51,173 nucleotides of DNA from Clostridia bacterium (GTDB lineage Bacteria > Bacillota > Clostridia > Oscillospirales > CAG-272): positions 1 through 51,173 of the forward strand of contig JAGAPL010000012.1 in NCBI GenBank assembly GCA_017623255.1. Reading direction: 5' to 3'. The notes under the pieces were generated by a model. It searched no databases, was not told the origin of the DNA, and saw only the letters and a program-made list of their open reading frames with translations. Each line of letters begins with the position of its first letter. Position 1 is the stretch's first letter. Position numbers and translations under genes: made by a program. Shown piece by piece: positions 1 to 32,096 of the stretch.

Positions 1-2750
1 AACACCTGAGCTTTAAGGCCAAGGTACAGCTTCAGCGACTTCTGTAATGATGCAGGAAGAGGAATATACACATCATCTATAATTACATACGTTAATGTGT
101 AGTTACCACTGGTTGTAAATATTGTGTTTGCCACCCATCCGCTGTTGGTCTGAACATAATCAACTGTGATATTCTGTCCCTGATCGTGAGCAAATACCGC
201 CTGTACCTTAGAAGGATTATTACCCGCGCTTATATTAAGGGAAAGAGTTGTTGTAAGCTGATAAAAATTCTCGGCCGTCATCAAAGTTTTACTGTTCTTG
301 CCTTCCCAGCCTTCACAAATAATATTATTTATTGTGATACCGGGGATCTCTACTGTTATTATCTGGTCTTCTTTAAGAGCATAGTCAACGCCGTCGATTC
401 TGATGCTTCTAAGCTTAAAGCTACCTGAACCGTCGAAGGTTACAGTTGCTTCCCATCCGTTATCGGTTTTTACAAAATCAAATTCAGGCTGGTTTGCACC
501 CTGTGTTTCTGAAATATATGAAACGAACTGACCCTTGATGCTGCTTGCCTCCATACCTGTGAGAGCAAGATTCAGCTTCACCTGAGGCTTATTATCGGGA
601 TCAAAGCTATCAAACTCTGTTTTATCAGCTGTGATCATAATATTATAGAAATCGTCCATAAGATCGCGATCATCCATAGAATCAAGATCATCGCTTGTGC
701 CAAACTGGATATTCAGCTGACCCTTGATGGAGCCTGATGCAAGAACGTTGCTGTTTTCAAGACGAGCGCCGTCAAGATACACGATAGCTGTGATTCTTGT
801 AGCCTCATTCTGAACCATTTTTGTAATATAGTAGGCATTTTCTACTATGGGATTTCCCTCTTCGTCTGTGCCTGTCACAATAGACTTAGCGCGAAGCTGC
901 AGAGGAACAAGAACTCGACCCTCCTGCTCAAATGCCATTGATGTATCCATATCTGCCTGAGCAAGAAGATTGCCTTCTTCATCAACAAATGCAATTCTCA
1001 TCGCAGAAAGCATTTCAAGAGCCTGCGCCTGGTCCTCAGGAGTTTCGGGATAGAAAATATAGCAGCTACCTGAGCCCTGAGATGTGCTTGGGCCAAGAGC
1101 AGAAAGTTCATCGTCCTCTTCCCAGATTCTGTTCTCTCCGGAATATCCGATAACAACTGTTTCTGTTACGGGATTTCCTTCTTCATCTGTTACCGGATTG
1201 CCTTCTGAATCATAGATCTGCTCAACTTTAGTATTTACCTTACCTGCAAGGGCAAGAAGTGTATCTGCAGCATTAGTACGAAGCCAGAAGTCTACAACCA
1301 TTCCGTAGGTGTCTGCCGCAACAGCGTCTGTTGCTTTAAGACCGCCCTCCTCGGCTTTCTTTATTGCCTGATTCTTAACTTCGATAATGGGATAGTTTGT
1401 ATATTTTGTGTTTGAAACATCTTCAACCTTAGCTTTTGCACTTGTTCTGATTTCTTTAATATTAACTGTAACAGTAATAATATAGTTTACCTTTGCAGAA
1501 ACACCTGTAACTGAAATATTACCGCCATAGAACCAGTCCATGTTCCAAACAAGGCCCTTCTGAAGCTCACAAACAGGGTTGCTACCTGCAAGAGATGTGA
1601 TTTCGGAGGCACCTATTGCACTTGCCGCTGTACCGTCAATTGTTGCAGAGTTGATATCAGCCATAGGGTTGATATAATCACGCATCAATTCCCAACCGAT
1701 TGAGGTATTCTTTGTATAAGGCTCGTATACATTAGTATAAAATCTTGAATAAAGTCCGTCTGTATAGCCGTTTGCCTCAGTACCGTTAAAGGTTTTGTGG
1801 TCGGCAAGATAAGCATCAAGACCCTCCAGTTTAACACCTTCTGCCGTCAATGTTGTTTTTACTGCGCCACTGTGCAGATCTTCAATGGTGAAAGGTGTGA
1901 AAGACTGTTCATTCTGGTTGCAATATACAAAATGATAAACATTTGCTGCTGCAACAAGAGTTTCACCTGTAAGGTAAAGACAGTTTTTATAATCGTTGTA
2001 CATATCATACACAAGCTTTACATAAGAAGTACAGTCCTGGTCAGTATCCTTGATTCTGTACTGCAGGTATACACCCGCCATACCTGTGATACTGTTCATG
2101 TAGTCCTTATTATTCCAAAGAGTTTTAAAAGCGTTATCTGCTTCGGAATAAGCCTGCTTTAATGCTGTGTTAAGGCTGAGGAGTGCCGCGTCACCTTCAA
2201 TACTTGCATAAGTTACAGAGGAAATTGCTCGTACACCGTACTCTGTTTTACCACCTTCAGGGACGGTAAAAGCATATCCCTCACCTTTTTTCTCATAGTT
2301 TGTATATGCAAAGTCAGAAACAACGCCTGAAATTCGTCCGTCAGAATGATACTGAACAGAATAAAGAGGCTCTGTAAGCAGTGATCCTGAGTTGAGAACA
2401 GCGGGTCTGAGAGTGAGGTTTGACAAACCATAACTGTTATGAGAAAGGTTGATAAGGTTTCCCCATTTAAGGTTTGTTTGGGTGATATCTCCGCCGCCGT
2501 CGGTAGGAGATGTGGGATCGGGCTCAAGTCCGTCCTTATCAGAGAGTGCTATTTCCAGGTTACCATTTGTTGCAACTGTTGTTGCAAGTCCGCTTATCTG
2601 AGGACTTCTTGACAAGGTTACCCAAGCAAATGTTGCGGATGCCATCATTGATATGGACATCACGAACAACAGAGCCACAGCCATAACTCGTTCTTTCATA
2701 TATGGCAGCGCTTTCTGATACGCTTTTATCCTTTTTTGTGTTTCTGTCAT
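1..2750 (-). CDS. Large secreted SipW-signal (TasA/CalY-like) protein, >916 aa, truncated at the window edge; absent from the ORF track
   Basis: ATG at 2750 with RBS AGGAGG. Hand translation gives MTETQKRIKAYQKALPYMKERVMAVALLFVMSISMMASATFA|WVTLSRSPQISGLATTVATNGNLEIALS...WGNLINLS...VDFWLRTNAA...ITAIVYLDG. The same frame reads open at position 3 (segments were translated, not every codon). Clear paralogue of 15597..17855. Confidence 0.9.
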   Translation of the reverse strand, partial: MTETQKRIKAYQKALPYMKERVMAVALLFVMSISMMASATFAWVTLSRSPQISGLATTVATNGNLEIALSDKDGLEPDPTSPTDGGGDITQTNLKWGNLINLSHNSYGLSNLTLRPAVLNSGSLLTEPLYSVQYHSDGRISGVVSDFAYTNYEKKGEGYAFTVPEGGKTEYGVRAISSVTYASIEGDAALLSLNTALKQAYSEADNAFKTLWNNKDYMNSITGMAGVYLQYRIKDTDQDCTSYVKLVYDMYNDYKNCLYLTGETLVAAANVYHFVYCNQNEQSFTPFTIEDLHSGAVKTTLTAEGVKLEGLDAYLADHKTFNGTEANGYTDGLYSRFYTNVYEPYTKNTSIGWELMRDYINPMADINSATIDGTAASAIGASEITSLAGSNPVCELQKGLVWNMDWFYGGNISVTGVSAKVNYIITVTVNIKEIRTSAKAKVEDVSNTKYTNYPIIEVKNQAIKKAEEGGLKATDAVAADTYGMVVDFWLRTNAADTLLALAGKVNTKVEQIYDSEGNPVTDEEGNPVTETVVIGYSGENRIWEEDDELSALGPSTSQGSGSCYIFYPETPEDQAQALEMLSAMRIAFVDEEGNLLAQADMDTSMAFEQEGRVLVPLQLRAKSIVTGTDEEGNPIVENAYYITKMVQNEATRITAIVYLDGARLENSNVLASGSIKGQLNIQFGTSDDLDSMDDRDLMDDFYNIMITADKTEFDSFDPDNKPQVKLNLALTGMEASSIKGQFVSYISETQGANQPEFDFVKTDNGWEATVTFDGSGSFKLRSIRIDGVDYALKEDQIITVEIPGITINNIICEGWEGKNSKTLMTAENFYQLTTTLSLNISAGNNPSKVQAVFAHDQGQNITVDYVQTNSGWVANTIFTTSGNYTLTYVIIDDVYIPLPASLQKSLKLYLGLKAQV

Positions 2751-2795: not shown

Positions 2796-4778
2796 TTAAT
2801 AATGTATGAAAAATGGGATTTCAACTCGGCTAAGCTCTGCGCCGTTCTGTTCCCGAATTAAGATAATACGGTAGGTTCCGGCTTTCGCCTTTCCTGCCTC
2901 ATTGGAAATGCTCAGCACTCCGTTTTCCACCTTAACGGTCAGCCCAAAGTTATTATAATCTTCCACATAGGCTATCTGTCCGCTTGATGATGAAAGCTGC
3001 TGAACCTTTAAAATTGTGTTCTCATTTTCTCCTGTAAGCTGCAGGGAAACTGAACTTTTATGATGAATTATCATCTGAGAAACATCATATGTTGCAGAAA
3101 TCGGAACTAATGATGTGTTGCACTGAATTTCTTCCGAAGATAATTCGTATATTCCCTTATATGCCGTCGCTGTAAAGCTAAGCTTATCAGGAATTGTTTT
3201 CAAATTTATGTTTGAAAAATCTATATAAATATCAATGCTTGATCTGCCTTCAACGGAAATATTAATTCCTTCTTCCCTTTCACTCAAGACGTAGCTTTCG
3301 CTATCAACCTTATAGCGTACGCCTGAAGGGAAAGAACCGCCATTATAACTGATCATTAAAGACGTTGAGTTTGACGGAACATTGATCCTTAGAAGCATTA
3401 TCTCTTCAAAAGATATGGTAGACGGATATGCTCCGTTCTCAAACATTGTTATCTCTTCTTCTTGTTTATAATACGGCACCACAGCCTTTTGACCTTCTGC
3501 TACTTCAGAACCGTTACTGTACACTACTGCGCCTAATATTATTTCGCTGATTTCCTGATCTGCTGCAACGTCAGAAAAATCTAGCCAAATTCCAACTGTT
3601 TCTTCGCTTTGGGCATCAACTTTGATTGGCATTTCATCGCCCAAAGCTATATAATTTTTGCCGTCACTGCTGAATACGGTTCCTACAGGGAACGCACCGC
3701 CGTTATATGTCAGTTCTATCATATCTGAACCTTCAGGACAAGCTATCGGCACTTTGAAAGTGCTATTCCAGTTAAATGTTGACGGACATTCTGATAAATC
3801 AAGCTGAACAGTATCTACTGAATCAGTAGTATCATCCGGATTTTCAGATGAATTGCTCATTGGAATAATATTAACAATAAAATCTGCCCACATTGTAGGC
3901 TTACCGTCAGATGCTGAATCAGGAGTCCAGCTGACGCGAACCGTTGCCTTTGTTTTCTGCGTGATTTCCACAGCAGAACTTGAAAGGCTCATTCGAAAAA
4001 CCGAAATACATTTGTTTGTATCACTGACAGTTATTCTGACGGGTGCCGACGAATTATCAAGAGATACGCCAAGATAGTCAAGATCAGATTGACAAGTGAG
4101 TGTGCCTGAAATTTCGCCGTTATATGTTATAAATTCAATATCGTGAGTTCTATAGGTTGCGGTTTCTGATACGGTCCAATCGTTAAGCAAAACTGTATTT
4201 CCACCGCTGGCAAGCAAATTGCTGCTGAATCCCACCGTGGCATCATTCACCTCATTTTCCGCATTCAAAGGACAAATCTCTACGTAGAGATAAGCCCAAT
4301 GTGTTGCAACACCGTCTGCAGAATCTGTTGGGATCCATCCAACATAGACCATTACTTCTGTTATCTTATTCAAACTAAGTGCGCTATCAGTCAAAGTAAA
4401 TGTTAAACTGACACTGACACCGTTTTTATCTGCTGTTACATTGGTTTTATCAAGGCTTGCAGTTATAAGGCTTGAGTTAGTGCTACAAGTCAGATTTCCG
4501 GAAATATCTTTATTTGTGCTTGACAATGAAATAGATTCCGTTCTTGAAGAAACACTCTGACCTATTTCCCACTTTTCAAGAAGAACTGACTGTCCGCCAT
4601 TGGCAAGATAATTACTCTCAAGCTCAGTTTTTTGAGGAGAATATACAAAATTATAAGTCTTTACGCTATTGATCCTGCCTTGAGTTATTCCGATTCCAAG
4701 AACAATCAAAGTGAGCATTGCTACTGAAATCAGCACAGCTGCCAAAGGCAAATATTTAATTCTGTGCGCTTTCATCAA
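2796..4778 (-). CDS. Secreted beta-rich protein with a SipW-like signal (GITQG|RI) and two pairs of internal repeats
   Basis: 660-aa ORF with a hydrophobic N-terminus. Repeat pair A: SNYLANGGQSVLLEKW / SNLLASGGNTVLLNDW. Repeat pair B: TYNGGAFPVG / SYNGGSFPSG. Confidence 0.8.
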   Translation of the reverse strand: MMKAHRIKYLPLAAVLISVAMLTLIVLGIGITQGRINSVKTYNFVYSPQKTELESNYLANGGQSVLLEKWEIGQSVSSRTESISLSSTNKDISGNLTCSTNSSLITASLDKTNVTADKNGVSVSLTFTLTDSALSLNKITEVMVYVGWIPTDSADGVATHWAYLYVEICPLNAENEVNDATVGFSSNLLASGGNTVLLNDWTVSETATYRTHDIEFITYNGEISGTLTCQSDLDYLGVSLDNSSAPVRITVSDTNKCISVFRMSLSSSAVEITQKTKATVRVSWTPDSASDGKPTMWADFIVNIIPMSNSSENPDDTTDSVDTVQLDLSECPSTFNWNSTFKVPIACPEGSDMIELTYNGGAFPVGTVFSSDGKNYIALGDEMPIKVDAQSEETVGIWLDFSDVAADQEISEIILGAVVYSNGSEVAEGQKAVVPYYKQEEEITMFENGAYPSTISFEEIMLLRINVPSNSTSLMISYNGGSFPSGVRYKVDSESYVLSEREEGINISVEGRSSIDIYIDFSNINLKTIPDKLSFTATAYKGIYELSSEEIQCNTSLVPISATYDVSQMIIHHKSSVSLQLTGENENTILKVQQLSSSSGQIAYVEDYNNFGLTVKVENGVLSISNEAGKAKAGTYRIILIREQNGAELSRVEIPFFIHY

Positions 4779-4802: not shown

Positions 4803-5417
4803 TTATTTCACTGCAACAAAATCACTCGTCACATAAATACTAAACATACTGGGATCAACCTCACCTGAGACATTTAATTTGAAGTTTCTATAGTTAAGCT
4901 TTCCGCCTTCAAGCAAAAAACTTATTTCTTCAACATTCATATCAAGGAAAGAATAAACCCAGCCATCACCATAAACATCGTACATAGCGCTGTTTTCAGA
5001 TATTCTCTCCGGATTTGCTGCCAACACAACACTATCTCCATCTTCATCTACGTAAGATAATGAAACAGACAAAGGACCGGAGCTCACACCGGATATTAAT
5101 TTCACAGTATACGTTTGATCTCTGCCTGAAAAAGATTCACTTGATGTAGCGTTTACAACGAAAAAATCAAGAGCTGCATTATCCGAATTCTGTGTCCAAC
5201 CTGAAGAAATAGTGGACCACTCTGAATTTATAGTTTCTTCGGTAAGCTTTCCGCCGTAAAAACCAAAAGTGTTTGCGGATACTGAGCTAACATTAAATGA
5301 TGCTGTTACAATTGAAGAATGATATCTGCCATAGGTCACCCCCACAGCAAGCGCTATGCAAGCTATGAGCAGCAACAACAATATTTTCAGTAGCAAGCTA
5401 TTTTTTCTACTGCTCAT
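4803..5417 (-). CDS. Small secreted protein with a SipW-type signal peptide (GVTYG|RY)
   Basis: 204 aa; basic n-region and long h-region ending TYGRY, resembling SipW-cognate TxARY ends. Confidence 0.8.
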   Translation of the reverse strand: MSSRKNSLLLKILLLLLIACIALAVGVTYGRYHSSIVTASFNVSSVSANTFGFYGGKLTEETINSEWSTISSGWTQNSDNAALDFFVVNATSSESFSGRDQTYTVKLISGVSSGPLSVSLSYVDEDGDSVVLAANPERISENSAMYDVYGDGWVYSFLDMNVEEISFLLEGGKLNYRNFKLNVSGEVDPSMFSIYVTSDFVAVK

Positions 5418-5431
5418 ACTTACATCCTTCC

Positions 5432-7486
5432 TTAATTAGCTTCGTTTTTCAAAGAAACCCTATATACTATTACAGTTTCTTCGCTACCCTCTACCTGCAT
5501 CTCTTCTTCAACGCAGATATAGTCTTCAGAAAGATACTCCGTAACATCTGAAGTGAAAACTCCGCCATCAATTGAAACCTTAACATAATCTGCTACGGGG
5601 AACACTCTCAGTGCCATTGCAGTTCTTGCGGTGTGACTGATTTCACAGTCTCCTGTAATAGTCATGCTTATAGGATATCCGTAGTTACTTTCAATGTAGA
5701 TACCATCACCTGTGTCAAGTGAGCCGCTAAGGCCAAGCTGTTCTTCGGTAGGCACAACAATAGGGCTGTCGTCTGTTGCTGTTCCTATAACCTTACTGTT
5801 GGAAATATAGAAGTCGCCGCCCTTTATAAGCATACCTGTCATACCCTTGAGAACACTTCCTTCGGCTGAGAAAATACTGTTCATCTGAGGATGGTATACG
5901 GCTGAGTAATATCCTTCAAGCGTACTATTTATCACCTGAATATTTGTGCCCCATTTTCCGTTTTCACCGGCAGTACCATTACCGATAATTGCACTATGGG
6001 TTTTACTTATAAGAGTACTGTCCTGAATAACAAGCTGAGACATTGCTGAAGAATTTGCGCCATCTCCATTAATTCTTACTGCGCTAAGTGATCCAACAAT
6101 ATTACTATCTGAGATAATAACCGTGGAATTTGCGCCATTTGACGCATTATCTTCAATTCTCACGCCTGTATTAAGATCTGTTATATTTACGTTGCTCAGC
6201 GTTACTTCACTGCCAACTGTTTTTACACCAATTGTTTTACTTCCTGCGGAGCCTGACAGATCACCGTTGAATATGGTGACGCTTGAGCCTTCTGCTACAT
6301 TGAAAATAGATTCAATATTTGTGTCTGTAACATTTATTTCGCAGCCGTTAAGGTCAAGCAATGCATCTACATATACAGCATCCTCTGTTTCTGTGGCTGC
6401 AGAACCAATAGCTATAGGCTCGGCCACAGTTAAACTACCTGAGAGGCGAACTATATCACCACTGTTTGAGTTAAGAGCCTCTGAAAGATCTGCTTCTGCA
6501 TCAAGAGTTACAACCTGCTGATTCAGCTGCTCTCCGGTTACAGAAATTCTGGCCTGATAGCTTTTCTTATCGCTTTCAGCAGTTGTTCCGTAAAGAGTAT
6601 CCCAAACGGTATTAGCTTCTATTTCGGCCTTTGTGCAGAGATATATCCAGATTTTATTATCCTTATCTATGGGATAGCAATTGGAAGCTTCAAGTGTTAC
6701 CGCTTCATCGCCATACATAAGAACTTCATCAACTACAGAATATACGCCTTCATACCCATCCTCTGCAGTTATCTGAGCCAGATATGAATACACATCTGTT
6801 TCTCCGTCAACTGTGAGAAGATTTCCATCTTCATCAAAGGTTGCATCGTCATATGAATACTCTACAGGACGAAGATATTCTTCAACTGTTATTGCAGGAA
6901 CTCCGTCAGTTACAGTTATATCACCAACAAAATAATATCCTACAACGTCATAAACCCATTCCCATTTCACAGGCACATCTGTGCTTATCTGCTCTGAAAG
7001 AATAAGTTCATTATGTCCATACAAAGTATAGGAATAGCCTTTAGAATTATTAAGATATATTTTATCAACAGCCTCTCCATTTACAACGGATGATTTATCG
7101 ACATAGAAATATATACGTTTTTGCATCTGAGCTTCTTCCATATACTGCTTGGAAATACTTACACCTATTGAACTGGCAAGATCACTCTTGTTCTTCACGC
7201 GCAATTCAACATAACCTGTATCACCGGGAGCAGCCTCTACTGCTTCTTCACTCACCGATACAGATCCGTCAAAGCCCCAAGCTTCAGCCTTGAAGGTAAG
7301 GCCGTTCACAGCAATAGTGTTTGTATACCACGCCGTTGTTACAGCAAACAAAAGAGTTACTGTCACTACAACAATAAATACTGCAAGACCTATCGACCTG
7401 GCATATATATTCTTTTTTGCAGCTCTAAGACGATCATCACTGCTCGCAGTTGTCTGACGTCTTTTCAGTTTCAACTTGTTCAGCAC
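5432..7486 (-). CDS. SipW-signal protein with a TasA-like N-terminal domain and C-terminal beta-helix-like repeats (putative adhesin subunit)
   Basis: 684 aa, GTG start. Signal ends AVTTA|WYTN; APGDTGYVELRVKN is TasA/camelysin-like. The C-terminal half has I-x-[DN]-S-x-[LI]-x-G repeats and LDLNG, typical of right-handed beta-helices. Confidence 0.8.
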   Translation of the reverse strand: MLNKLKLKRRQTTASSDDRLRAAKKNIYARSIGLAVFIVVVTVTLLFAVTTAWYTNTIAVNGLTFKAEAWGFDGSVSVSEEAVEAAPGDTGYVELRVKNKSDLASSIGVSISKQYMEEAQMQKRIYFYVDKSSVVNGEAVDKIYLNNSKGYSYTLYGHNELILSEQISTDVPVKWEWVYDVVGYYFVGDITVTDGVPAITVEEYLRPVEYSYDDATFDEDGNLLTVDGETDVYSYLAQITAEDGYEGVYSVVDEVLMYGDEAVTLEASNCYPIDKDNKIWIYLCTKAEIEANTVWDTLYGTTAESDKKSYQARISVTGEQLNQQVVTLDAEADLSEALNSNSGDIVRLSGSLTVAEPIAIGSAATETEDAVYVDALLDLNGCEINVTDTNIESIFNVAEGSSVTIFNGDLSGSAGSKTIGVKTVGSEVTLSNVNITDLNTGVRIEDNASNGANSTVIISDSNIVGSLSAVRINGDGANSSAMSQLVIQDSTLISKTHSAIIGNGTAGENGKWGTNIQVINSTLEGYYSAVYHPQMNSIFSAEGSVLKGMTGMLIKGGDFYISNSKVIGTATDDSPIVVPTEEQLGLSGSLDTGDGIYIESNYGYPISMTITGDCEISHTARTAMALRVFPVADYVKVSIDGGVFTSDVTEYLSEDYICVEEEMQVEGSEETVIVYRVSLKNEAN

Positions 7487-8312
7487 TTTGATTTAGCTCC
7501 TCTAATAACTCTCTGCGCAATCGTTCGTACATTTCTTCGTACGTTTCTTCTTTCTTTTCTTTCTCTGTTTCCTTTTGCTTTACTTTATTGGACATTTCAT
7601 CCAATTCTTTATGTATTGCATCCATTTCTTCTCTCAGTGTTCCTATGGTGTCACGCATGATCATAACGCCTATTATAATACAGGGGAGAACTATGAATGC
7701 CCAAAATCCGATTTTACTTGTCAAGAAACTTATGAGATCGGCAAAGAAATTATCTTCGCCCGTTGCATAAATTACTTTGCCTACAAGATTTTCTTCGTCA
7801 ACCAATTTGGCATCTGCATATTTATTAGCATCACCTTTTGTTTCAAGGAAAATACTTCCGTTGTTATCCTCATAAATCTTGACTACACGGTGAGTGATGA
7901 TCATACCCAACATGCCGTTATCTCTGGAACGGAAATTGACAACATCCTCAACCTTGATATCTTCAATATCTGTTTTTTGAGATATGAGCAACGTACCTAC
8001 GGGCATCTCAGGCTCCATACTTCCCGTTGCAACGCGGAACATACTGAAGCCGCCAATTGATATATATCCATTACTCAGCACCTGACTTATAACCCAAAGG
8101 CACAAAATAATGGACATTACAAGAGCGCATCCTACAAAAAATGATGCTTTTTTGCTCTTCTTGGGCTCATCTGACTTAGTTCCTTCGTTTTCTGTTATTA
8201 TTTCAGTTTCTTTATCTTCTACTGAGTTTTCTTCCCCAATATCATTCTCAGTTGAAACTGCTTCTTCACTTTGAACAATTATATCAGTTTCTTTATTCTC
8301 CATATCAATCAT
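7437..8312 (-). CDS. sipW: Signal peptidase I, SipW (ER/archaeal type)
   Basis: TM helix, VATGSMEP (catalytic Ser), IITHRV (His), TKGDAN..D, second TM, coiled-coil tail. Confidence 0.92.
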   Translation of the reverse strand: MIDMENKETDIIVQSEEAVSTENDIGEENSVEDKETEIITENEGTKSDEPKKSKKASFFVGCALVMSIILCLWVISQVLSNGYISIGGFSMFRVATGSMEPEMPVGTLLISQKTDIEDIKVEDVVNFRSRDNGMLGMIITHRVVKIYEDNNGSIFLETKGDANKYADAKLVDEENLVGKVIYATGEDNFFADLISFLTSKIGFWAFIVLPCIIIGVMIMRDTIGTLREEMDAIHKELDEMSNKVKQKETEKEKKEETYEEMYERLRRELLEELNQSAEQVETEKTSDNCEQ

Positions 8313-15484: not shown

Positions 15485-15580
15485 GGATTTATTAAATCCA
15501 TCATTCACGGGTTAAAGGATTTTTTAGCCTGTGAATCGTGGGTTTAACGGGGGATCCCCCCGCCCTTTCGGGCGGGAGAG
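15485..15580 (-). other. Cluster of stem-loops 3' of the 752-aa gene
   Basis: CCCGCCC-GAAA-GGGCGGG with no U-tract, then imperfect ATTCACAGGCTAAA/TTTAACCCGTGAAT, then GGATTTA/TAAATCC. Confidence 0.65.
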
Positions 15581-24800: not shown

Positions 24801-27800
24801 ATCAGCTTCAAGAGCTGCAAATGCATCGGAAAGTGTGTCGTACCAACCAACGAGCTTGCCTTCAGCGTCGTTAACTACGATTGCCTTTTCTTCAGGGAAC
24901 AGACGAACTGTTACGTTCACTTCTGTTACATCAACATTGTATGCTACAGAATAGCTTGAGTAGATATTCTTATTGCCTGTGAATGTCTTGCCCTTGGAGA
25001 AGCCATAGTACTTACCTTCTGCATCAGACTTCTTAACAGAACCAAGAGTTCTGCCGCTTTCTGTTACTGTTTCAAGGAGTTCTCTTGCTTCGAGCTGACG
25101 GAGGAGTGCTCCAACAACTTCGATTACAAGGGAATAACCCATTGCTTCATCACCGATTCTATCGATGATATCAGCCTCTGCATCAGCACTGAGCTTAAGG
25201 CTCTTAACCATAGCTGTGAACTTTTCGCCGCGAGCTACATTGCCGAGAGCATCGCAAAGCTGCTTAGCTGTTACAGAATCAAATGCCTTTTCAAGATAAG
25301 TGAGTGTATGATCAGCATAGTATGCATCAATTGCTTCAACAACATCTGCCTTGAGAGCAGCGTTGTCTGTGTTAGAAGCAAGAACAACTGCCATCATAAT
25401 TACATATCTTGCATCCTTTGTGAAGTCGAGTTCAACGGAACCTGCGTAAGCACCGTTTACTACGATTTCATCATTATCGTTACGAACGATATCTTCAAGA
25501 GTGAGCTCAGATTCAACTACTGCTGTGTCAGCAAGAGCACCGGCAATAATTGCAAGCTCATCCTTATAATCGCCATCAACTACTACGTTGATAACGTAAG
25601 TTTCTGTTTCATCAGAAGAAACGATATTAGCTGTGAGAGCATCATTTACAACGTCAAGCTCAAATACCCAAGGAGCAACAGTTGCTTCATAAGAAGCTAC
25701 CTTGCCGTCGCCTTCAAGAGCTGCCTGGAGAGCTGCAAAGTCTGTGAGATCTGCAACAACTGTATTGAAGAGATCTGCAAGCTCAGGAGCAGATACACAA
25801 GCAAGAACTTTATCAATTGCATTGTCAACTCTGTTTGTGCCTGCTACCAGGCCAATGATATCTTCAACATTAATATCATAAACCTGCTTGCCATCAACTG
25901 TAAGTGCAGCAACGTCATAGTTGTTTACAAGAAGATCAACTACAAAGTCGATACCTACAGATGCGATGCTCTTCTTATTGAGCATTTCCTTGAGATCGGA
26001 AGGAGTTGCATTAAGTGTGATTGTTACGTCGTTACCATCTACTGCAACGCTGAACAGCTTGTTATATACAAGGCCGTTTGCATCCTGAGCATAACCTGCC
26101 TTAAGGAATGCAGATACATCATGGCCGTACTTACCGCCAACAACTGTAGCAGAACCTGAAACTGCACCGTAAACAATACCGGAATCAGCATTATTACCTG
26201 TGCTGTCGGAAATAACTACTGTGTTATTAGCTGTGATATCGCCGAGTACCTTCTTACCGTTGAGGTCAAGAAGTGTCTTAGCATTGAATACGAGATCGCC
26301 TGCAACATCATCAAGAAGGATAATAGCTGCGGGGCCTACAAGCTTAGGAGCGTTTGCTACAAGCTCTTCTGCTGTGTAGATGTGAATAATATCCTTTGTT
26401 GCAGCCTTAAGGTCAACAAGGATAGCTGCGTATTCAACTTCTGTGTTTGTCAGCTTAGCGGAGAGAGTTACGTTTATACCGTCAATCTCTTCTTCAGCTG
26501 TCTTGTATTCTTTGATCAGTGTACCAAGGTCGATAGAAAGGTCTACGCCCATAGAAGCGATCATTTCATCAACCATACCCTGGAGTCTTGCTGTTACAGA
26601 ATTGATGCCTATATTATTAATAGGAAGGATATAGTTACCATTTGCATCAAAATATTCTGCATCTGTGTCATAAAGTTTAACAACTGCATTGTAGATCTTG
26701 CCATAAGTTGTGCCTGTAAGCTTGAAGTTCTGGCCAAGATTTGCAAGAGTTTTATCAATGTTAGCTGTTGTTATCTCACCGTTGAGAACAGGATCAAGAA
26801 CTGTGAGCAGATATGTGATTGCTACCTGATTATTGAGTTCATCAATATTGTCAAGGTTGATTTCGCCTACAGCAGAGAGAGCTGCTACATAGAGAGCATA
26901 AACCTGATCGGGCAGTGTGATCTCTGCGTTAGCCATACCGTTTTCGCATACTACGGAAACATAAGGAGACGCTGCTACAAGAGCCTTGCGGGCCTTCATT
27001 ATAAGATCTGTAGCTTCTGCGAGAGTGATATAGAAATCAATTTCAACAGCATCAGCTTCTGTTGCGCCGAAGGACATTGTTGTCTTGATTATCTGGCCGC
27101 CAAGCTTATCTACATCATACGCGCCGATAACATTGTAGCCATTGAGAGTCATATGATCAATGTTACCCTTTTCATCAACAACATCAATGATTGTCTGTGT
27201 GCCAACGCCGCTGTTCATAACAACGTCAACGATTGTCTGGAGTGAATACTGGCTGCCATCATAAAGCACGCCGTCACCCATACCGATGTAGCCATAGTTT
27301 GAACCGCCCATTACAAGACCCATAGCAAAGTTGCCAAGTCCTGTCTTAGCACCGTCCATTGAAGGAACGATGGGAAGAACAGCAGCATATTTGCCTTCTG
27401 CGTTCTTTGTAAGAACAGCCGCGCCCTTCATTGCATCAAAGAGTTCGATAAGTCTCTTTTCAACGAGGTTGATTTCTGTGCGAGTGATTACTACAGTGCC
27501 GTCTGCAAAGATTGCATCAAAATCAGCTCTGGGGAACTGGATCTTAACGCCTTCTGCGCCAACGTACTGTTCAAATGTCTTAGTTTCACCGTTCACTGTA
27601 TATGTATAGGAGTACACATAAGCAATATCGTTAGAAGATGTGCCGGGGAGTGTTACACCGTTGCCTGCTGTAGCATCGGTATATGTGAGTGTAACGTCTG
27701 CAGCACCTTCAATCTTAACTGTATACTTCTTAGCTGTCCATGTTTCAGAAATAACAGTTTCTGCGGAGATCATATCTCCAACAACAGGTGTTACAAATGT

Positions 27801-30800
27801 ACAAACGTTATGAACTGTGTCAATTGTGATTTTGTTTTCTTCCTTGATTGCATTGAGAGCAGCCTGAATCTTTGTCTGTACAGACGCCATATTCTCAGCT
27901 GTCAGAACGCCTTCCTTGAGGGAAACAGAACCAACATATTCCTTACCGTTTACGTCAAGGAGCACTTTAACATCAATAGATCCGGGACCTGCTGCTGCAA
28001 TGGAAGCAACCCATGTCATAGGTTCAGGAACAGCATCAAAGTGCAGGCCTGTGCCGTTGAGTGCATCGAGAGCATCAAGAAGATCTACGATTGCTGCATT
28101 GTTTACATCAAGAATGTTTGCATTGGGAGCTGTGAGAGAAGCATTGATTACTGCAAACTGAGCCTTAAGCTCTGTGAACATTCCGTCATATGCCTGGTCA
28201 ACAAGCAAAGCCCAAAGATTATCATCATTCTCAATAATTGTGATGAGGCCGAGCATCTTATTGATCTCTGCCTTGTAGCTTTCATAGTTCTGATAATAAG
28301 GAAGCATATTATCAACCTTACCATCACTATTGCCATCACACTGTTTAAGAAGTGTATAAATTACAAGCTCGTTATTATTCTTACCAAGTTCGTCTACGAT
28401 GCCCTTGATTGCATCCTTAGCTTCCTGTGTGGAAGCAGCAATTGCTGCTGAGCTAAGATCGCCTGCATGAGCGCCGATTTTTTCGAGGTTGTTTCTCTGA
28501 CCGAGAAGAACATTGAGAGCTGCCTTCTGAGCTGCATACTCTTTGGAAAGTGTTTCCTGGAGGTTCAGCTTAGCAAGGATGTCATCAGCTGTGATCTCAC
28601 CTGCTGTTGCGCTTTCGAGCGCGCCAACTGTGATATCAAGTTCGTATGCAACTTCAAGACTACCGTAAGCGTTGTCCGTGAGAGTTGCTGTATTTCCAAC
28701 GAAGTTTACTGTTTCGATGAGGTTACCTTCTTCGTCGTAGCTTGTTACGGAAGCGGGAGTCCACATAAGGCCAGCCATTTCAGCATCCACGTTGGAAACT
28801 GTGATTGTGTTACCGCCTGCAAGTACATCACTCTGGTCGATAACCGCTGTATCCTTATTAGGAGTTACGAGCCAGAAGGATTCGCCCTTATCAACGATTT
28901 CGTTTGTGATAACGCCTTCAGCGCTAACTGCAACGTTTGTCTTATCAATAAGGTCAACGATTGTCTGATACTGATCAGCCTTACCTTCTGTTCTTGTGAT
29001 AACTGTTTCGCCAAGGATTTCTACTTTCATTCCCTGGTTCTTCGCAGCACCGTTTACTGTGTAGATATAAGCAAGCTTGTTGCCTTCCGCATCAGAACCT
29101 GTGTGCTTGGGAAGCATTACCACGGAACCATAGTATGCTTTATCCGTTTTGATAAGGCTACCATCTTCCTCGAAATAGTTCACTGTGTAAACAGCGGGAG
29201 TAAACTTAACTGTAATTACACCGTCAGAATCAATTACGTCTGAAACTGTATCTTCTGTTATGTCTTCATAGTAATTACCAACATTTTCTTCATCACCGAG
29301 ATCCATAACATAACCGGCTTCTTCCCAAGCCGCAAGAGCCTTAAATCTGAGCTCATTTACAGCGTTCATTACCTCAAGCTTGGAAGAATCCTTACGGAGT
29401 GTGATTGTTTCTGTAAACTTTTCAAGAGATACAAGATCAAGAACGTCGGGAGTTTTGTCTGCAACGTAACCTTCAACTGTGATTACGATATCAAACATAC
29501 TCATATTGTACTTGGATTCAGCAGTTGCAACTTCAAGAACCTCAATAACATCAGCGTCTGTATATGTCTTAGGTTCTGCAATAAGTCTCACGTTCTTTGT
29601 GATATCAGCATAGTCTGCGCCGGGAACAAGTACTTCGTCTACGTTCCATCCGTTATTGTCAAAACGATCGATAACGGGCTTTACTGCTTCGCAGAAACCG
29701 TTAAGAACTTCTACAAGGAGATTGAGCATAGGAGCCATATCCTTAAGCTGAGCAATCTGGGCCTCAAGTTCTTCAAGCTGATTGATATTTGCTTCAAACT
29801 CAGGGAGAGCAACCTCTGCTGCTGCGAGCATGCTTGCAGCGTCTTCAAGCTTAGAAAGGTTTGTTTCTACAAGAGTAAGAAGATTAATAACTGTATCCAG
29901 TTTAGAAAGCGCGCCCTCAACTACAACGAGAGAATCCTTAGCTTCATTAAGCTTAGGAAGATATGTTTCGTCAATAGCTACCACGCCATCCTTAGCTGCA
30001 GCAAGACTACTCTTGATTGTAGGAATTTTTTCATTGAGTGTCTTCAGGCCTGCTATAGCGTCTTCAGCCTGCTTAAGCTGATCCACATAGCTTGCAACAC
30101 CTGCAACAGCAGCGCCCATACCGTAGTTATTTGCGCTTGCAACAAGATTAGAAAGGCTTGCTGAATCAGTTACGGGAACGAGACCTGCCATCTGAAGCAT
30201 TGCATATTTTGTGCCTGCCGCAGTCTTGATTGCACCATTGATTGTTTCAATAACAGAAGCATACTGATTTTCTGCTTCAGTTATCTTACCGGGAAGATTG
30301 CTTTCAAGAACATTGATTTCATTGATAAGAGAATCAAGTTCATCTTCATTTGTAACAGTTGTTGTTGTTACGCCGAGAGCATTGAGCTGAGTAGCATAAG
30401 GAGCCATCTGCTCTGTTACAGCAGCAAAAACATTTTCTCTGATCTTGCCAAGAGCAACGATGTTCTTTTCAACATCTGCAGAACCAGCTATTGTAGCTGA
30501 ACCACCGTTAGCATCAAGTTCATCTGCATATCCGGAGCTCGCAATCACGCCCTCTATAGCTGCGCAAACATCTGCTTTAAGTGCTGCAAGTTCGTTCTTA
30601 AGGAACTTAACGTCTTCAGCTATTTTATACTCTTTGCTTGTTACGCTTTCAGGAAGAACATCTTTGTTATCCTGAACAAGTGTGTTGATTTCAACAAGAG
30701 CTTCGTCTCTCTTAGCTTTGACATCATCAGAAAGCTTTGTGAGACTTGCGCTTGTGATATCTTCTTTCTTTGTAGGAACGTCGATACCTGTTACACCCTG

Positions 30801-32096
30801 AGAGCTCAAAGTAACCTTGAGAGCCATAAGAATAGACTGAAGCTGAGTTTTCTGTGTGTCAACATAAGCGTTGATATCAGCTTCAAGCTGCTGGAGCTCA
30901 GCAAGATCCTTAACGCCATCATAGCCAATCGCTGTCTTCAGCGCATCGGGAAGCTTAGCATCAAGTTCTGCACTGATCTGCTCATAAGGCTTTTCTTCTG
31001 CATAGTACGCATCAATAATTTCTATAGCTGCTTCGATGTCCTTATACATTTCCGCAAACGCGCCGCCCAGATCTTCAAACTGCTCGAAATTAACATTAAG
31101 AGCATTTTCAAGTTCTGCATAAGCAGCATCATCTGCAATCATTTCAAGAACGCTGAGATCAGCATAGTTTTCATAGAAAGTATTGATCAAAAGTCCGCCG
31201 GCAGCCTGCTGCTGAACGAGACCGGGATTGCCTGAACCCGCATTGGAGATATGCTGCTTTACTCTGTTCTTAAGTTCAAAAGCGATTTCAACCCACTCTC
31301 CGTTAGGAAGCTGCTGTTCAACATCCTCAAGGTATTTACCGCTTTCTTCATTCACAAAGTATGCATTGAGCATATCGATCATTGTGCCACCCTCAAGCTG
31401 TTCAAGGGGAAGCTTGGTTGTCAGCAAGTTTGTGATATCAGCAGGAGAAAGTTTGAATTCCTGTCCGCTGATAACTGTTTCATAGCAAACAGTTTTATTG
31501 ATAAGATCCATATACTGAACATCCTCAGCAAGAAGACCTGCTGCATTAAGGAGCTTCAGCTGCACTGCTGTTGTTACAGCGGAGGGATCTTTGATGCTTT
31601 CTGTATCAAGTACATAAGTTACTACGATGGAGAAAGCATTTTCGGCATATGTGTATTTACCTACACTAACCGCCTTGTTTCCTTCCGAAACAAGTTCAAT
31701 GTCGTTTTCCTTAACTTCGGAACCGACAACCACGTCAAATGTTGTAGGATACCAGGTATTTCCCTTAGCATCTACAAATGCATTGACAGTTACAGTCTTG
31801 TCATCTTCATTTACGATAACAAGATTGTCTGAATCCTTAACTTCTTCAGGAGGGAGAGTGTACTCAATAGTAACATCTCCAACAATCTGACCTGTAGCAA
31901 GGATTTCCTTTTCTGCGCTGGTTATTTTGCCCGCTTCAGCATAAGCTTCTGCCATGATCTGACCGAGTGTGGGCGCGTGTTCGTGCTCACCGGCAGCGGC
32001 AGGCATTATGAGACTCAGGTTGGCTGTTGACAGCAGCATAGCCAAAACCAGAAGCAGTGATACGCATCGCTTAAAATTTTTGAAACCTACGTTCAT
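21894..32096 (-). CDS. Giant secreted protein (3400 aa) with a helical region, Cys/His-rich repeats and a C-terminal dockerin
   Basis: Sec signal peptide, RBS AGGAGG. C-terminus GDLNGDGQVKSGD...ADINGDGQVRSGD is a duplicated Ca-binding dockerin motif. Many TC..G....C..CG repeats lie at ~22580-24560. Confidence 0.9.
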   Translation of the reverse strand: MNVGFKNFKRCVSLLLVLAMLLSTANLSLIMPAAAGEHEHAPTLGQIMAEAYAEAGKITSAEKEILATGQIVGDVTIEYTLPPEEVKDSDNLVIVNEDDKTVTVNAFVDAKGNTWYPTTFDVVVGSEVKENDIELVSEGNKAVSVGKYTYAENAFSIVVTYVLDTESIKDPSAVTTAVQLKLLNAAGLLAEDVQYMDLINKTVCYETVISGQEFKLSPADITNLLTTKLPLEQLEGGTMIDMLNAYFVNEESGKYLEDVEQQLPNGEWVEIAFELKNRVKQHISNAGSGNPGLVQQQAAGGLLINTFYENYADLSVLEMIADDAAYAELENALNVNFEQFEDLGGAFAEMYKDIEAAIEIIDAYYAEEKPYEQISAELDAKLPDALKTAIGYDGVKDLAELQQLEADINAYVDTQKTQLQSILMALKVTLSSQGVTGIDVPTKKEDITSASLTKLSDDVKAKRDEALVEINTLVQDNKDVLPESVTSKEYKIAEDVKFLKNELAALKADVCAAIEGVIASSGYADELDANGGSATIAGSADVEKNIVALGKIRENVFAAVTEQMAPYATQLNALGVTTTTVTNEDELDSLINEINVLESNLPGKITEAENQYASVIETINGAIKTAAGTKYAMLQMAGLVPVTDSASLSNLVASANNYGMGAAVAGVASYVDQLKQAEDAIAGLKTLNEKIPTIKSSLAAAKDGVVAIDETYLPKLNEAKDSLVVVEGALSKLDTVINLLTLVETNLSKLEDAASMLAAAEVALPEFEANINQLEELEAQIAQLKDMAPMLNLLVEVLNGFCEAVKPVIDRFDNNGWNVDEVLVPGADYADITKNVRLIAEPKTYTDADVIEVLEVATAESKYNMSMFDIVITVEGYVADKTPDVLDLVSLEKFTETITLRKDSSKLEVMNAVNELRFKALAAWEEAGYVMDLGDEENVGNYYEDITEDTVSDVIDSDGVITVKFTPAVYTVNYFEEDGSLIKTDKAYYGSVVMLPKHTGSDAEGNKLAYIYTVNGAAKNQGMKVEILGETVITRTEGKADQYQTIVDLIDKTNVAVSAEGVITNEIVDKGESFWLVTPNKDTAVIDQSDVLAGGNTITVSNVDAEMAGLMWTPASVTSYDEEGNLIETVNFVGNTATLTDNAYGSLEVAYELDITVGALESATAGEITADDILAKLNLQETLSKEYAAQKAALNVLLGQRNNLEKIGAHAGDLSSAAIAASTQEAKDAIKGIVDELGKNNNELVIYTLLKQCDGNSDGKVDNMLPYYQNYESYKAEINKMLGLITIIENDDNLWALLVDQAYDGMFTELKAQFAVINASLTAPNANILDVNNAAIVDLLDALDALNGTGLHFDAVPEPMTWVASIAAAGPGSIDVKVLLDVNGKEYVGSVSLKEGVLTAENMASVQTKIQAALNAIKEENKITIDTVHNVCTFVTPVVGDMISAETVISETWTAKKYTVKIEGAADVTLTYTDATAGNGVTLPGTSSNDIAYVYSYTYTVNGETKTFEQYVGAEGVKIQFPRADFDAIFADGTVVITRTEINLVEKRLIELFDAMKGAAVLTKNAEGKYAAVLPIVPSMDGAKTGLGNFAMGLVMGGSNYGYIGMGDGVLYDGSQYSLQTIVDVVMNSGVGTQTIIDVVDEKGNIDHMTLNGYNVIGAYDVDKLGGQIIKTTMSFGATEADAVEIDFYITLAEATDLIMKARKALVAASPYVSVVCENGMANAEITLPDQVYALYVAALSAVGEINLDNIDELNNQVAITYLLTVLDPVLNGEITTANIDKTLANLGQNFKLTGTTYGKIYNAVVKLYDTDAEYFDANGNYILPINNIGINSVTARLQGMVDEMIASMGVDLSIDLGTLIKEYKTAEEEIDGINVTLSAKLTNTEVEYAAILVDLKAATKDIIHIYTAEELVANAPKLVGPAAIILLDDVAGDLVFNAKTLLDLNGKKVLGDITANNTVVISDSTGNNADSGIVYGAVSGSATVVGGKYGHDVSAFLKAGYAQDANGLVYNKLFSVAVDGNDVTITLNATPSDLKEMLNKKSIASVGIDFVVDLLVNNYDVAALTVDGKQVYDINVEDIIGLVAGTNRVDNAIDKVLACVSAPELADLFNTVVADLTDFAALQAALEGDGKVASYEATVAPWVFELDVVNDALTANIVSSDETETYVINVVVDGDYKDELAIIAGALADTAVVESELTLEDIVRNDNDEIVVNGAYAGSVELDFTKDARYVIMMAVVLASNTDNAALKADVVEAIDAYYADHTLTYLEKAFDSVTAKQLCDALGNVARGEKFTAMVKSLKLSADAEADIIDRIGDEAMGYSLVIEVVGALLRQLEARELLETVTESGRTLGSVKKSDAEGKYYGFSKGKTFTGNKNIYSSYSVAYNVDVTEVNVTVRLFPEEKAIVVNDAEGKLVGWYDTLSDAFAALEADVSESFTVIVVEAVEATADINVSKSVDLVTNNNVTFGDYKFVLTADGASVDSDVALSAVVSDEETLHLIADDAEYVYTAEDHDWSDWTVTTESTCTEEGEEERACSVCGRTETQKVAVDPDGHKWGDWTTTKEPDCTEDGEEVRVCELCGKEETNVLAATGHAYVYTFNWVGYECETMTVTCSNTDCDLNDTVDVTVTSEQTIDPDCCTTGEKVYTAKATYNGVDHYDTKTEVLPELGHNPDLDNFKITNVEYVPATSTFALRATVIEGYFEYTVTTTCERCDEPFEDTFTVEANKIAPDCFTDGEYNATVEYVEVWGVQVPVSAEDQAKFKEVIPSEGHDYVDYPAQEPTCTDEGWDAYKVCNGCGESTQVIKPALGHEYMLDEANCVWAADYSTCTMTFTCARGCGFEDTKVVNSTIVPVPPTCVDDAKAEVTASVEYEGETYTVTKTVVAPGTATGVHTPGTAVQENVVSATCGADGSYDEVVYCTVCDAELSREAKVIPATGAHTHGTAVQENVVGATCGADGSYDEVVYCTVCNAELSREAKVIPATGEHTPVVDAAVEATCTTTGLTEGSHCDVCGTIIVAQEVVDALGHTWDAGVVTAPTCTEDGYTTYTCTVCGETKVEPGEAATGHTFVYDSETWGAGNGTCTITIKCACGETVVLDATVTSEVTTNADCVNAEITTYTATAEYEGKTYTATTTAETAPAKGHNFNKIVNVDDPWVFDITAMTATMTIECENCDAVYTIVAEITATTDPVSGDTTYSIVVDPELEAELNKLQNLPGFDFDKFVNADHVVIGKPAISDVKLNNHADLFGYNVKMGAEENILFLDLHYLGITLDEFKAMIQASTFENDANGYVDITVDNELHESGRVGTGLKITMTATNTAGESATLKLTIIVLGDLNGDGQVKSGDASVASQITIGTYTATNYQILAADINGDGQVRSGDKSMICKKNIELMDQYYSFCKA
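23146..23427 (-). repeat. Near-identical 2 x 141-bp tandem duplication (47-aa Cys/His repeat)
   Basis: CCTGTTGCGGGAATA starts at 23146 and 23287; encodes HTxGTAVQENVVxATCGADGSYDEVVYCTVCxAELSREAKVIPATG twice. Confidence 0.92.

Follow-up and report, generated by a model that had tools for sequence, protein, structure and literature searches.

Fibres of the TasA and thread types (TasA, CalY, BsaA and the archaeal threads) are, to our knowledge, thought to assemble without an energy source or a nucleoside triphosphatase (NTPase). For BsaA of Clostridium perfringens, the accessible part of the published account proposes that donor-strand exchange takes place while the subunits are still tethered to the membrane and is followed by cleavage by the signal peptidase SipW (PMC11580942). 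A different association was named by Bell et al. (eLife 2024; PMC11090510; preprint PMC10542128), whose text, as far as it could be consulted, gives the name “CoCoPALM” to operons that pair McrB and McrC homologues with signal peptidases, describes them in one paragraph as a transmembrane (TM)/coiled-coil McrB with a coiled-coil McrC and signal peptidases, and defers their analysis. The CoCoPALM clade is characterized there by an NxD rather than an NxxD signature, usually followed by a second D, and by fusion of the GTPase to an FtsB-like TM/coiled-coil region; the “CoCoNuT” relatives are presented as predicted restriction systems. A full-text literature search on the pairing of SipW with McrB, on TasA-like fibres, on McrBC in pilus assembly and on CoCoPALM led to this work as the one relevant source and found no later paper using that word. 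Here, a locus comparable with both kinds of system is described from a 51,173-nucleotide stretch of DNA (the window), which is the entire contig C104 (JAGAPL010000012.1) of a 1.6-Mb metagenome-assembled genome (MAG), 70.7% complete, of a Clostridia bacterium.

The region at 3-32096 of the window is most likely a conserved operon whose products form a protein fibre of several subunits on the cell surface of a Gram-positive gut Clostridium. More specifically, a probability of about 60% is assigned to its being a SipW-dependent surface fibre locus of the CoCoPALM kind, in which several subunits of donor-strand type stand under a cytoplasmic GTPase module; as a locus of that type it is complete, except that its last gene is cut by the contig end. 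Gene content and order, paralogy among the encoded proteins, intact peptidase and NTPase motifs, the lack of recognizable nuclease and DNA-binding domains, degenerate cyclic-nucleotide domains and a weak fold likeness to known fibres were established directly. An earlier note on this DNA had proposed an undescribed SipW/TasA-type fibre system. Its observation is real and largely accurate and its interpretation reasonable; that interpretation is not new in outline, because the association had already been named CoCoPALM in the consulted part of the 2024 paper, and the word “undescribed” has to be given up.

Gene content and order of the locus

The region holds 15 co-oriented open reading frames (ORFs), all on the minus strand and named g1 to g15 in the order of transcription. 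Intergenic gaps within the series measure 3-223 nt, and there are two overlaps, both involving g11 (8 nt with g10 and 50 nt with g12), so that the more than 32 kb of co-oriented, tightly packed genes reported before are confirmed. Searches of Pfam and NCBIfam with the window's own g4, g5, g6, g9, g10 and g12-g15 gave no match at E ≤ 0.01. As had also been noted, the machinery of other pili is missing from view: the contig carries no sortase, a search of the 70.7%-complete MAG turned up no PilB-type ATPase, and prepilin peptidase was outside the search.

Conservation of the locus was followed through g10 (8305..9666), a 453-aa subunit. Among 8000 scored candidates it has 1551 homologues at E ≤ 0.001, all unnamed or “hypothetical” and none with a Pfam domain. 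A profile built from 13 homologues matches 2321 representative clusters (50% identity) at E ≤ 1e-3, 304 at E ≤ 1e-10 and 142 at E ≤ 1e-30, and at 90% identity relatives of the g10 type number more than 1500 protein clusters. When one genome per species was scanned, at least 295 stretches with a g10 relative were confirmed. Gene order was counted by tblastn of the window proteins on the best 80 of these 295 loci, taken with 10-kb flanks, and each count includes only loci whose flank reaches the position expected for the gene. By record title nearly all of the 80 are MAGs, the other four being “uncultured” assemblies, and they are assigned to Oscillospiraceae, Lachnospiraceae, Acutalibacteraceae, “Eubacteriales” and “Ca. 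Avispirillum”.

Across these loci the order g3-g4-g5-g6-g7-g8-g9-g10-g11-g12-(g13)-(g14)-g15 recurs. The gene is in place in 41 of 52 testable loci for g3, 49 of 54 for g4, 59 of 60 for g5, 63 of 66 for g6, 65 of 68 for g7, 70 of 73 for g8 and 73 of 77 for g9; downstream of g10 the counts are 78/78 for g11, 75/76 for g12, 34/72 for g13, 10/68 for g14 and 61/66 for g15. Loci in which genes are missing are cut, permuted or masked (for example L075, L077 and L084), and g13 and g14 are fast-diverging. With this order found again in dozens of distant genomes, chance falls far short of explaining the cluster; the possibility, raised in the earlier note, that homologous components would lie unlinked in other genomes was checked, and the g3-g15 order was found to be kept. 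Two g5-type genes stand in tandem at L058, L071 and L080, and at L077 and L084 the order is permuted, with a g15-like gene upstream of g10.

Close relatives of the locus are also present in bovine metatranscriptome contigs (4 runs, 2 studies), which carry near-identical pieces of g12, g11, g7 and g6, the long pieces at 5651-6839, 6803-7528 and 13214-14719 having 0-3 differences; such contigs show presence in the libraries rather than transcription, their depth cannot rank the genes, and stretches without cover carry no meaning.

Exported proteins, their peptidases and their folds

Seven proteins, g5, g6, g10, g12, g13, g14 and g15, have a single N-terminal hydrophobic helix together with a conserved motif. 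Profile-profile comparison (hhalign) joins g5 to g15 with a probability of 100% (blastp E 2.8e-24 between them) and g6 to g10 with 99.9%, the latter two being paralogues over the full length of g10, and it joins the two pairs to each other over their N-terminal regions with 97.5-98.2%. The membrane protein g4 is matched to the C-terminus of g6 at 91.5% and to that of g10 at 70%. On the strength of these profile comparisons, g4, g5, g6, g10 and g15 are assigned to one paralogous superfamily.

All members of the superfamily except g4 begin with a basic N-terminus and one hydrophobic helix, followed by a motif conserved among orthologues. In the 752-aa subunit g5 (15597..17855) the motif reads (S/T)TYAWFTLSTAPEVxGI..VGANG.LE, kept in at least 80% of 56 orthologues, or, written as conserved across orthologues, (S/T)TYAWFTLSTAPEV.GI.T.VGANG.LE. 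The corresponding motif is A.YTWF..S.TP.VS in g6 (14375..15373), which at 332 aa is the smallest paralogue, and YAW...S..P...G....IGG in g10. The large g5 paralogue g15 (3..2750) is truncated at 916 aa by the contig end; its full-length relatives have 1500-1960 aa. The exception, g4 (17958..19127), has a conserved basic N-domain of ~117 residues, inferred to be cytoplasmic, then one TM segment (118-136) and, on the outside, a domain that is a paralogue of the C-terminal parts of g6 and g10; it carries the motifs GLYFDK and GHFTI..S...F..GF.LSE and no cleavage motif. It is the TM-anchored paralogue that the earlier note had recognized, and is here proposed as the fibre base. Two further genes of the g5/g15 type lie in tandem on contig C39 of the same MAG, at 2810-6316 (+; 1168 aa) and 6379-10317 (+; 1312 aa); they share FAW..LS..PE..G...GANG.LE, an ORF with a dockerin match (1981-2145, +) stands directly upstream, and they could serve as spare or variant subunits, of shaft or adhesin type, that lie apart from the main locus.

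The other three exported proteins resemble the superfamily only weakly, at the N-terminus, and have motifs of their own. In g12 (5432..7486) a signal anchor with an AWYTN motif (T.AW..NV among orthologues) is followed by an N-domain distantly like TasA and camelysin and by a C-terminal right-handed β-helix of adhesin-like type. The small secreted protein g13 (4803..5417; 204 aa) has G..(Y/F)(G/A)RY behind its signal helix (G....RY as its conserved form) and a weak match to BasC (E 0.0022), far below the cut-off; it is weakly like g14 over the N-terminus (hhalign 81.5%). The secreted 660-aa g14 itself (2796..4778; TM 13-31) is the most variable member of the locus.

Of these proteins, g12 comes closest in sequence to described families. 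Among 37 orthologues, 18 match Pectate_lyase_5 (“pectate lyase-like adhesive domain”), 6 Beta_helix and 3 Peptidase_M73 (best 4.3e-4), the last being the Pfam family of TasA; the window's own g12 has no Peptidase_M73 match. In the ESM atlas, whose neighbours are taken as a lead only, 21 of the 30 clusters nearest to g12 are of Peptidase_M73 type. The g12 family is the one sequence bridge to TasA's family, and a weak one. For g5 the atlas holds no named neighbour at 0.8 or above, and clusters of SipW-type or Peptidase_M73 proteins appear only at 0.75-0.77, a range in which matches are often due to chance. The clusters near g12 that carry a Peptidase_M73 assignment are labelled 60% viral.

The enzymes expected to process these proteins are two signal peptidases, g7 (13210..14340) and g11 (7437..8312), which score 86.4 and 86.9 bits against TIGR02228 (ER-type/SipW; cut-off 51.85), and the two SipW peptidases of the earlier note are thereby upheld. 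Both reach 87-89 bits with NF046067, the equivalog model of Bacillus SipW, under its cut-off of 190, and therefore are not equivalogs of the Bacillus enzyme. Of 67 g7 and 78 g11 orthologues, at least 90% retain the serine (SM) and histidine (TH) motifs. Each peptidase has two TM helices (30-48 and 177-195 in g7; 57-75 and 201-219 in g11), the second leading into a long charged tail, which in g7 is rich in Glu, Ala and Lys and ~180 aa long; g11 has an acidic N-extension as well. In RNA-library contigs of three runs of one study, exactly 63 nt are skipped within the Glu/Ala-rich tail of g7 (window 13367-13431), so that the tail varies in length, in frame, between strains. Contig C124 has a second SipW locus, a small one at 1-3783 (-), in which the neighbours of a 193-aa SipW-type peptidase (83.5 bits with TIGR02228) are secreted proteins of 161, 224, 310 and 318 aa; two of these carry G(L/F)(Y/V)(A/S)KY behind the signal helix, recalling the motif of g13. 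Close to the end of contig C134 (9852-10529) there is a third gene of SipW type.

The folds of two subunits were modelled with AlphaFold2, g10 from a 13-row alignment (pLDDT 78.2) and g6 from 29 rows (pLDDT 84.7), and both are predicted to be β-sandwiches whose closing strands come from the two extreme termini of the chain. The models were compared independently with 48,161 PDB chains by an exhaustive structural aligner, with Z 8 as the line below which caution is due. For g10 the first rank falls to the TasA fibre 8aur_A (Z 4.9, 152 residues aligned, rmsd 4.3), and the next to FmlH, PorA, CS17, the Sulfolobus thread 7pnb (Z 4.4), CooA, cannulae, PapA, CfaB, Tafi and FimA. For g6 the thread 7pnb_A (Z 6.2, 138 aligned) ties at the top with 8aur_A (rank 2, Z 6.2, 157 aligned, rmsd 4.4); below these two the list consists of trivial single-helix matches to the signal helix, and rescoring of Foldseek's 1000 best chains places FimA at Z 5.0-5.2. 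The best matches to the globular parts of both models include many donor-strand fibre subunits, chaperone-usher pilins among them, interspersed with unrelated β-sandwich proteins, and the models suggest a weak fold likeness of g6 and g10 to donor-strand fibres. A complex prediction with three copies of mature g6 (residues 36-331) scored 0.00 in two runs with the controls not folded, and counts neither for nor against polymerisation.

One feature of the DNA points to a particular subunit as the principal one. Hairpins 3' of the gene are typical of major pilin genes. A GC-rich stem-loop (15559..15576, minus strand) starts ~21 nt past the g5 stop codon, and the 227-nt intergenic region after g5 folds with a z of -5.5. 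When the strongest 45-nt hairpin in the 150 nt behind g5 is compared between loci, its median is -28.7 kcal/mol, and in 82% of 60 loci it reaches -15 or lower; its sequence differs between loci and its position is kept. Hairpins of -15 kcal/mol or lower occur in 56% of the g4-g5 gaps and in 0-18% of five other gaps, a comparison partly confounded by gap length (median 145 nt after g5 versus 18-62 nt). Because it is bracketed by conserved strong hairpins, g5 is the likely major subunit on this analysis. A scan of 13000-32800 for terminators found no classical one after g5, and a promoter scan of the same interval gave 45 promoter-like sites, with 37.0 ± 5.8 expected; those on the coding strand within intergenic gaps are only three, at 32301-32273, 15471-15443 and 13166-13137.

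Exported paralogues of this kind need not polymerise. They could instead act as individual adhesins, anchored or held in the wall, or as an S-layer-like coat, with peptidases that merely mature them and a β-sandwich that is generic. Such an explanation would suit structural matches that all lie below Z 8 and subunits that are large (332 to more than 1500 aa) and rich in inserted domains, unlike compact pilins; it would also suit the adhesin-like character of g12 and g15 and a core family with no sequence link to TasA. It is nevertheless judged unlikely, given that the best matches of both models include so many donor-strand fibre subunits and that five paralogues share a motif and a strand just behind the signal helix, the place of the donor strand in TasA, where it sits just after the signal peptide. 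Moreover, an uncleavable, anchored g4 and a hairpin-flanked g5 suit the usual layout of a pilus operon.

The cytoplasmic module and the surroundings of the locus

Between the first signal peptidase and g10 lie the two genes of an McrBC-like pair. The first, g8 (11513..13108), encodes a membrane-tethered, McrB-like AAA+ NTPase with one strong TM segment (56-74), a short, conserved, charged and helical-looking segment (KKYDE.V.QVR.LQRDL.RANYEKDKLLA) and a P-loop GTPase domain. Three of the four PDB matches of the single sequence at E ≤ 1 are McrB (best 0.005), the fourth being a thiol peroxidase (E 0.19); with a profile of 29 orthologues all three matches at E ≤ 0.01 are E. coli McrB (best 8.6e-4), and AAA_5 matches 29 of 29 orthologues. 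The Walker A motif GISGTGKTS, the Walker B motif ILDEMN and GTINNDDSTFAV are invariant in 69 of 69 sequences. The signature NNDD can be read as NxxD, as in a gapless alignment to NTAD of McrB, or as NxD with a second D. At the N-terminus, where the nucleic-acid-binding domain of McrB would stand, g8 has its TM segment, and among the Pfam matches listed for the 29 orthologues (25 of 31 families listed) there is no FtsB/DivIC family.

The second gene, g9 (9696..11486), encodes the most conserved protein of the locus (mean column identity 62%). Its N-domain (~1-340) is McrC-like, DUF2357, the McrC N-domain, being matched in 5 of 29 orthologues (best 5.5e-8); the window's g9 has no Pfam match. Among the 120 homologues listed for g9, 27 have PF09823 (DUF2357) precomputed and one is so named by NCBI. 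The tail of ~250 aa that follows (~340-596) is rich in Glu, Lys and Arg and is a presumed coiled coil. No nuclease family occurs among the Pfam matches of the 29 orthologues, and the g9 profile gave no match to PDB sequences at E ≤ 1, only low-complexity noise beyond. The TM-anchored McrB-like AAA+ protein with a DUF2357 partner, as first noticed, is thus well founded.

The cytoplasmic protein g3 (19131..20597) combines domains of the cyclic-dinucleotide type. HD_5 (47.1 bits) and EAL (38.5 bits) both exceed their Pfam cut-offs. The canonical motifs are HD, GYP, EAL and DDFG; in g3 they read HQ, GYP, EAT and DGYH, and the replacements are conserved in 3 distant orthologues. The degenerate HD-GYP/EAL protein described before is therefore present, and by its domains g3 is a candidate c-di-GMP receptor.

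The kinship of g8 and g9 with McrBC raises the possibility of a defence or conflict system, in which g8/g9 at its core would sense an invader or stress and control the release or processing of surface proteins, with no standing pilus; its outputs could be a protective coat, receptor masking or effectors. In favour, g8 matches the PADLOC phage-defence-candidate model PDC-M26A (E 5.9e-42), and its GTPase domain, never the TM part, has relatives 34-39% identical on 251 plasmid records (0 covering at least 80% of the query), one of which has an annotated DUF2357 gene behind it. The same domain has a 34%-identical relative at 40037-41104 of MT835511.1, an unannotated human-faecal phage record. The CoCoNuT relatives, as predicted restriction systems, and a patchy distribution (4/300, see below) fit a defence role as well. 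Against it, no nuclease was detected in g9 and g8 has a TM segment in place of a DNA-binding domain; g8/g9 are fixed within an operon of at least 10 exported proteins and two peptidases, across loci that are ~40% identical; none of g3, g4, g7, g9 and g11 matches PADLOC; and the flanking ORFs scanned (10 of ~16) included neither an integrase nor another defence gene. A defence system is accordingly regarded as decidedly improbable, and a SipW-dependent fibre under a GTPase module continues to be preferred. Two narrower proposals were set aside: that g8/g9 are an inserted, unrelated defence island, rejected as the main explanation because g8 keeps its position in 70 of 73 loci and g9 in 73 of 77; and that the cluster is of prophage or mobile-element origin, no integrase being present among the flanking ORFs scanned and the phage match covering the GTPase domain only.

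Upstream of g3 lie two genes for surface proteins. The first of the series, g1 (21894..32096), encodes a secreted giant of 3400 aa that ends in a type I dockerin within its last ~60 residues, Dockerin_1 (E 1.7e-7) being its only Pfam match, which bears out the dockerin-bearing giant of the earlier note. Over about 1600 residues it can be aligned with the giants of three other genomes (26-32% identity), and the g1-like giant of G003 likewise has a dockerin at its end, as the Pfam scan of that one copy showed. In the 413-aa g2 (20630..21871) a signal peptide and an Ig/PKD-like N-domain with weak PKD-like matches are followed by a Pro/Thr linker and by helical repeats resembling FIVAR (E 2.4e-5, below cut-off); a TM anchor (374-392) lies at the C-terminus. 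A g2 homologue stands immediately upstream of g3 in 5 of 5 genomes examined, and a g1-like giant immediately upstream of the g2 homologue in 4 of 5. The two are a conserved adjacent pair of surface proteins and conserved upstream neighbours of the core operon, with a possible functional tie to the fibre.

The earlier note had suggested that g2 might be a cohesin anchor for this dockerin, a suggestion that the search did not support, g2 having no Pfam Cohesin match at E ≤ 0.5. Genome-wide there are 19 dockerin matches, g1 included, and 7 cohesin matches, which fall on contigs C27, C117, C22 and C133 and none on this contig; C27 holds a 959-aa ORF with at least 3 cohesin modules. By these matches the MAG has a general cohesin-dockerin system, which extends over those four contigs and 15 others. 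Because the cohesins are all on other contigs, the g1 dockerin more probably docks to a scaffoldin encoded elsewhere.

Beyond the cluster, the flanking genes are ordinary chromosomal ones (MatE, DUF4349, mannitol dehydrogenase, M24 peptidase, a PucR-type regulator, FtsX and S41 peptidase). Two further minus-strand ORFs outside it, at 37127-39616 (829 aa) and 49387-51138 (583 aa), have no Pfam match at E ≤ 0.001.

Proposed assembly and comparison with known systems

In the assembly pathway proposed here, g5, g6, g10 and g12-g15 would be exported by Sec and retained in the membrane by their N-terminal signal anchors until g7 and g11 cut beside the (S/T)-x-A|W-F/L-T-x-S motif. Cleavage would free an N-terminal strand that fills the open β-sandwich of the next subunit, as in TasA and the archaeal threads. 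With the same kind of outside domain and no cleavage motif, g4 would stay in the membrane as the uncleaved base, g5 would form the shaft, g6 and g10 would serve as adaptors, and g12, with its β-helix, and the giant g15 would be the adhesive or distal components. At the cytoplasmic face would stand the tethered GTPase g8 and its McrC-like activator g9, in which a charged helical tail would replace the McrC nuclease; together with g3, the tails of g7 and g11 and the N-domain of g4, they may make up a control or energising module that licenses or drives assembly on a nucleotide signal.

How far this module acts on the fibre itself is a separate matter. It is conceivable that an McrBC pair has been recruited from restriction to act on membrane proteins and that its GTPase performs mechanical or gating work on assembly; a hexameric, tethered McrB-like ring, switched on by an McrC that lacks a nuclease and controlled by a receptor of c-di-GMP type, would then act on the cytoplasmic tails of the SipW peptidases and the anchor subunit, either pulling on them or licensing them. 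This part of the scheme is put forward tentatively and is held somewhat doubtful, and the terms “NTP-driven” and “hierarchically assembled”, used in the earlier note, are inferences.

Several observations speak against a fibre of this kind and have to be set against the conserved operon. So far, no member has been seen to be cleaved or to form a filament or polymer. The earlier note had counted at least seven proteins with SipW-type signals: seven do have the N-terminal helix and motif, and in that sense the count stands, but TIGR04088, the model of the SipW-cognate signal, has no match at E ≤ 10 in the genome with a positive control in B. subtilis. The conserved (S/T)YAW(F/L)T.S motif is present in its place, so that the signals are SipW-like by position and logic and lie outside the TIGR04088 model. 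The same note's TasA-like subunits hold in so far as 8aur and 7pnb are the best fold matches, weak at Z 4.9-6.2, and fail with respect to TasA's own family PF12389 (Peptidase_M73), which is matched by 0 of 63 proteins of the g5, g6 and g10 types at E ≤ 0.1 and nowhere in the MAG at E ≤ 10. The models' matches, all below Z 8, may reflect only a common β-sandwich arrangement, and homology is not proved by them; Foldseek against the PDB returned nothing at E ≤ 1e-3 for either model, its best rows for g6 being FimA variants (E 5.8e-3, probability 0.47). The gap-length confounding of the hairpin comparison and the limits of the RNA-library contigs, given above, belong here as well.

Distribution and precedent add to these points. 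In an even sample of the same order, 4 of 300 other genomes, from four different families, had a g10 homologue (E ≤ 1e-10), and in the window's own family 1 of 17 genomes sampled had one. The system is accessory and patchy, and such a distribution fits an accessory or conflict system equally as well as a pilus. The nearest relatives of g8 and g9 are defence-type McrBC pairs, and a role for them here is without precedent, because the known fibres of TasA and thread type need no NTPase.

A further variant of the proposal would accept the fibre and confine it to one developmental stage, as a spore-specific or cell-contact-specific structure for which the GTPase module acts as a checkpoint. By their record titles the carriers belong to largely spore-forming Clostridia, and SipW and TasA are said to have been first linked to spores in Bacillus. 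Neither a sporulation gene nor a sigma-factor signal was found in the locus, however, and the RNA-library contigs that carry it come from gut samples without stage information; a stage-specific fibre is considered very improbable.

If the McrBC-derived pair does gate or drive fibre assembly, the locus would encode the first NTP-dependent machine for assembly, release or retraction of a donor-strand fibre of TasA or thread type, and a new Gram-positive pilus machinery, distinct from the sortase, type IV and chaperone-usher systems. Should the module act on fibre assembly, it would also provide an example of a restriction-type AAA+ motor re-used for protein work and a new surface-fibre pathway in abundant, mostly uncultured bacteria of the gut and rumen.

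Among described systems, the fibre operons of Bacillus, tapA-sipW-tasA of B. subtilis and sipW-tasA-calY of B. cereus (PMC9674648, PMC10151520 and PMC13082335, each as far as accessible), share with this locus a dedicated SipW-type peptidase beside exported β-sandwich subunits and a conserved aromatic motif at the end of the signal peptide; the TasA fibre is the best PDB match here, and g12 is weakly of the Peptidase_M73 type. They differ in having 3 genes, one peptidase and no NTPase, whereas the subunits of the present locus number at least 8, are 2-8x larger, lie outside PF12389 and TIGR04088, and are accompanied by an McrBC-like pair, an HD-GYP/EAL protein and an anchored paralogue. Likewise, sipW-bsaA-bsaB-bsaC of C. 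perfringens (PMC7395162, PMC11580942) is, in the accessible accounts, a clostridial SipW operon with several TasA-like exported proteins; it differs in having four genes, isopeptide-locked oligomers and, where the present locus has an McrBC-like module, help in secretion from type IV pilus proteins.

The archaeal threads (Saci_0406, 7pnb), the bundling pili (AbpA, 7ueg), Tafi and the cannulae represent chaperone-free donor-strand fibres whose subunits undergo processing of signal peptidase I type. Their subunits are small and single-domain, no NTPase is known to be linked to them, and the likeness of the present proteins to them is one of fold only, and weak. With the McrBC and CoCoNuT type IV restriction systems, in turn, the locus shares an McrB-family AAA+ GTPase with invariant Walker A, Walker B and N..D motifs and a DUF2357 partner immediately downstream; it differs from them in that no DNA- or RNA-binding domain and no nuclease domain was detected, g8 is tethered to the membrane, and the pair stands inside an operon of exported proteins.

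The closest correspondence is with CoCoPALM as described in the consulted part of Bell et al. Common to both are an McrB-like GTPase with an N-terminal TM segment and a helical segment, a DUF2357-type McrC homologue with a long charged helical tail in which no nuclease was detected, the association with signal peptidases, and occurrence in Bacillota. The locus fits that description on the points that can be tested, the choice between NxD and NxxD and the homology to FtsB excepted. The exported subunits and their fold, the two peptidases, g4, the HD-GYP/EAL protein and the dockerin giant are undescribed in the accessible text. What the present analysis adds to that published paragraph, to the extent that it could be read, is an anatomy of 13-15 genes, a superfamily of five paralogues with its motif, the anchored paralogue and the TasA/thread-like models, as well as the bridge from g12 to Peptidase_M73, the hairpins around g5, the degenerate HD-GYP/EAL gene and the neighbouring dockerin giant. 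The map of this locus thereby turns a one-paragraph note on CoCoPALM into a set of concrete, testable parts.

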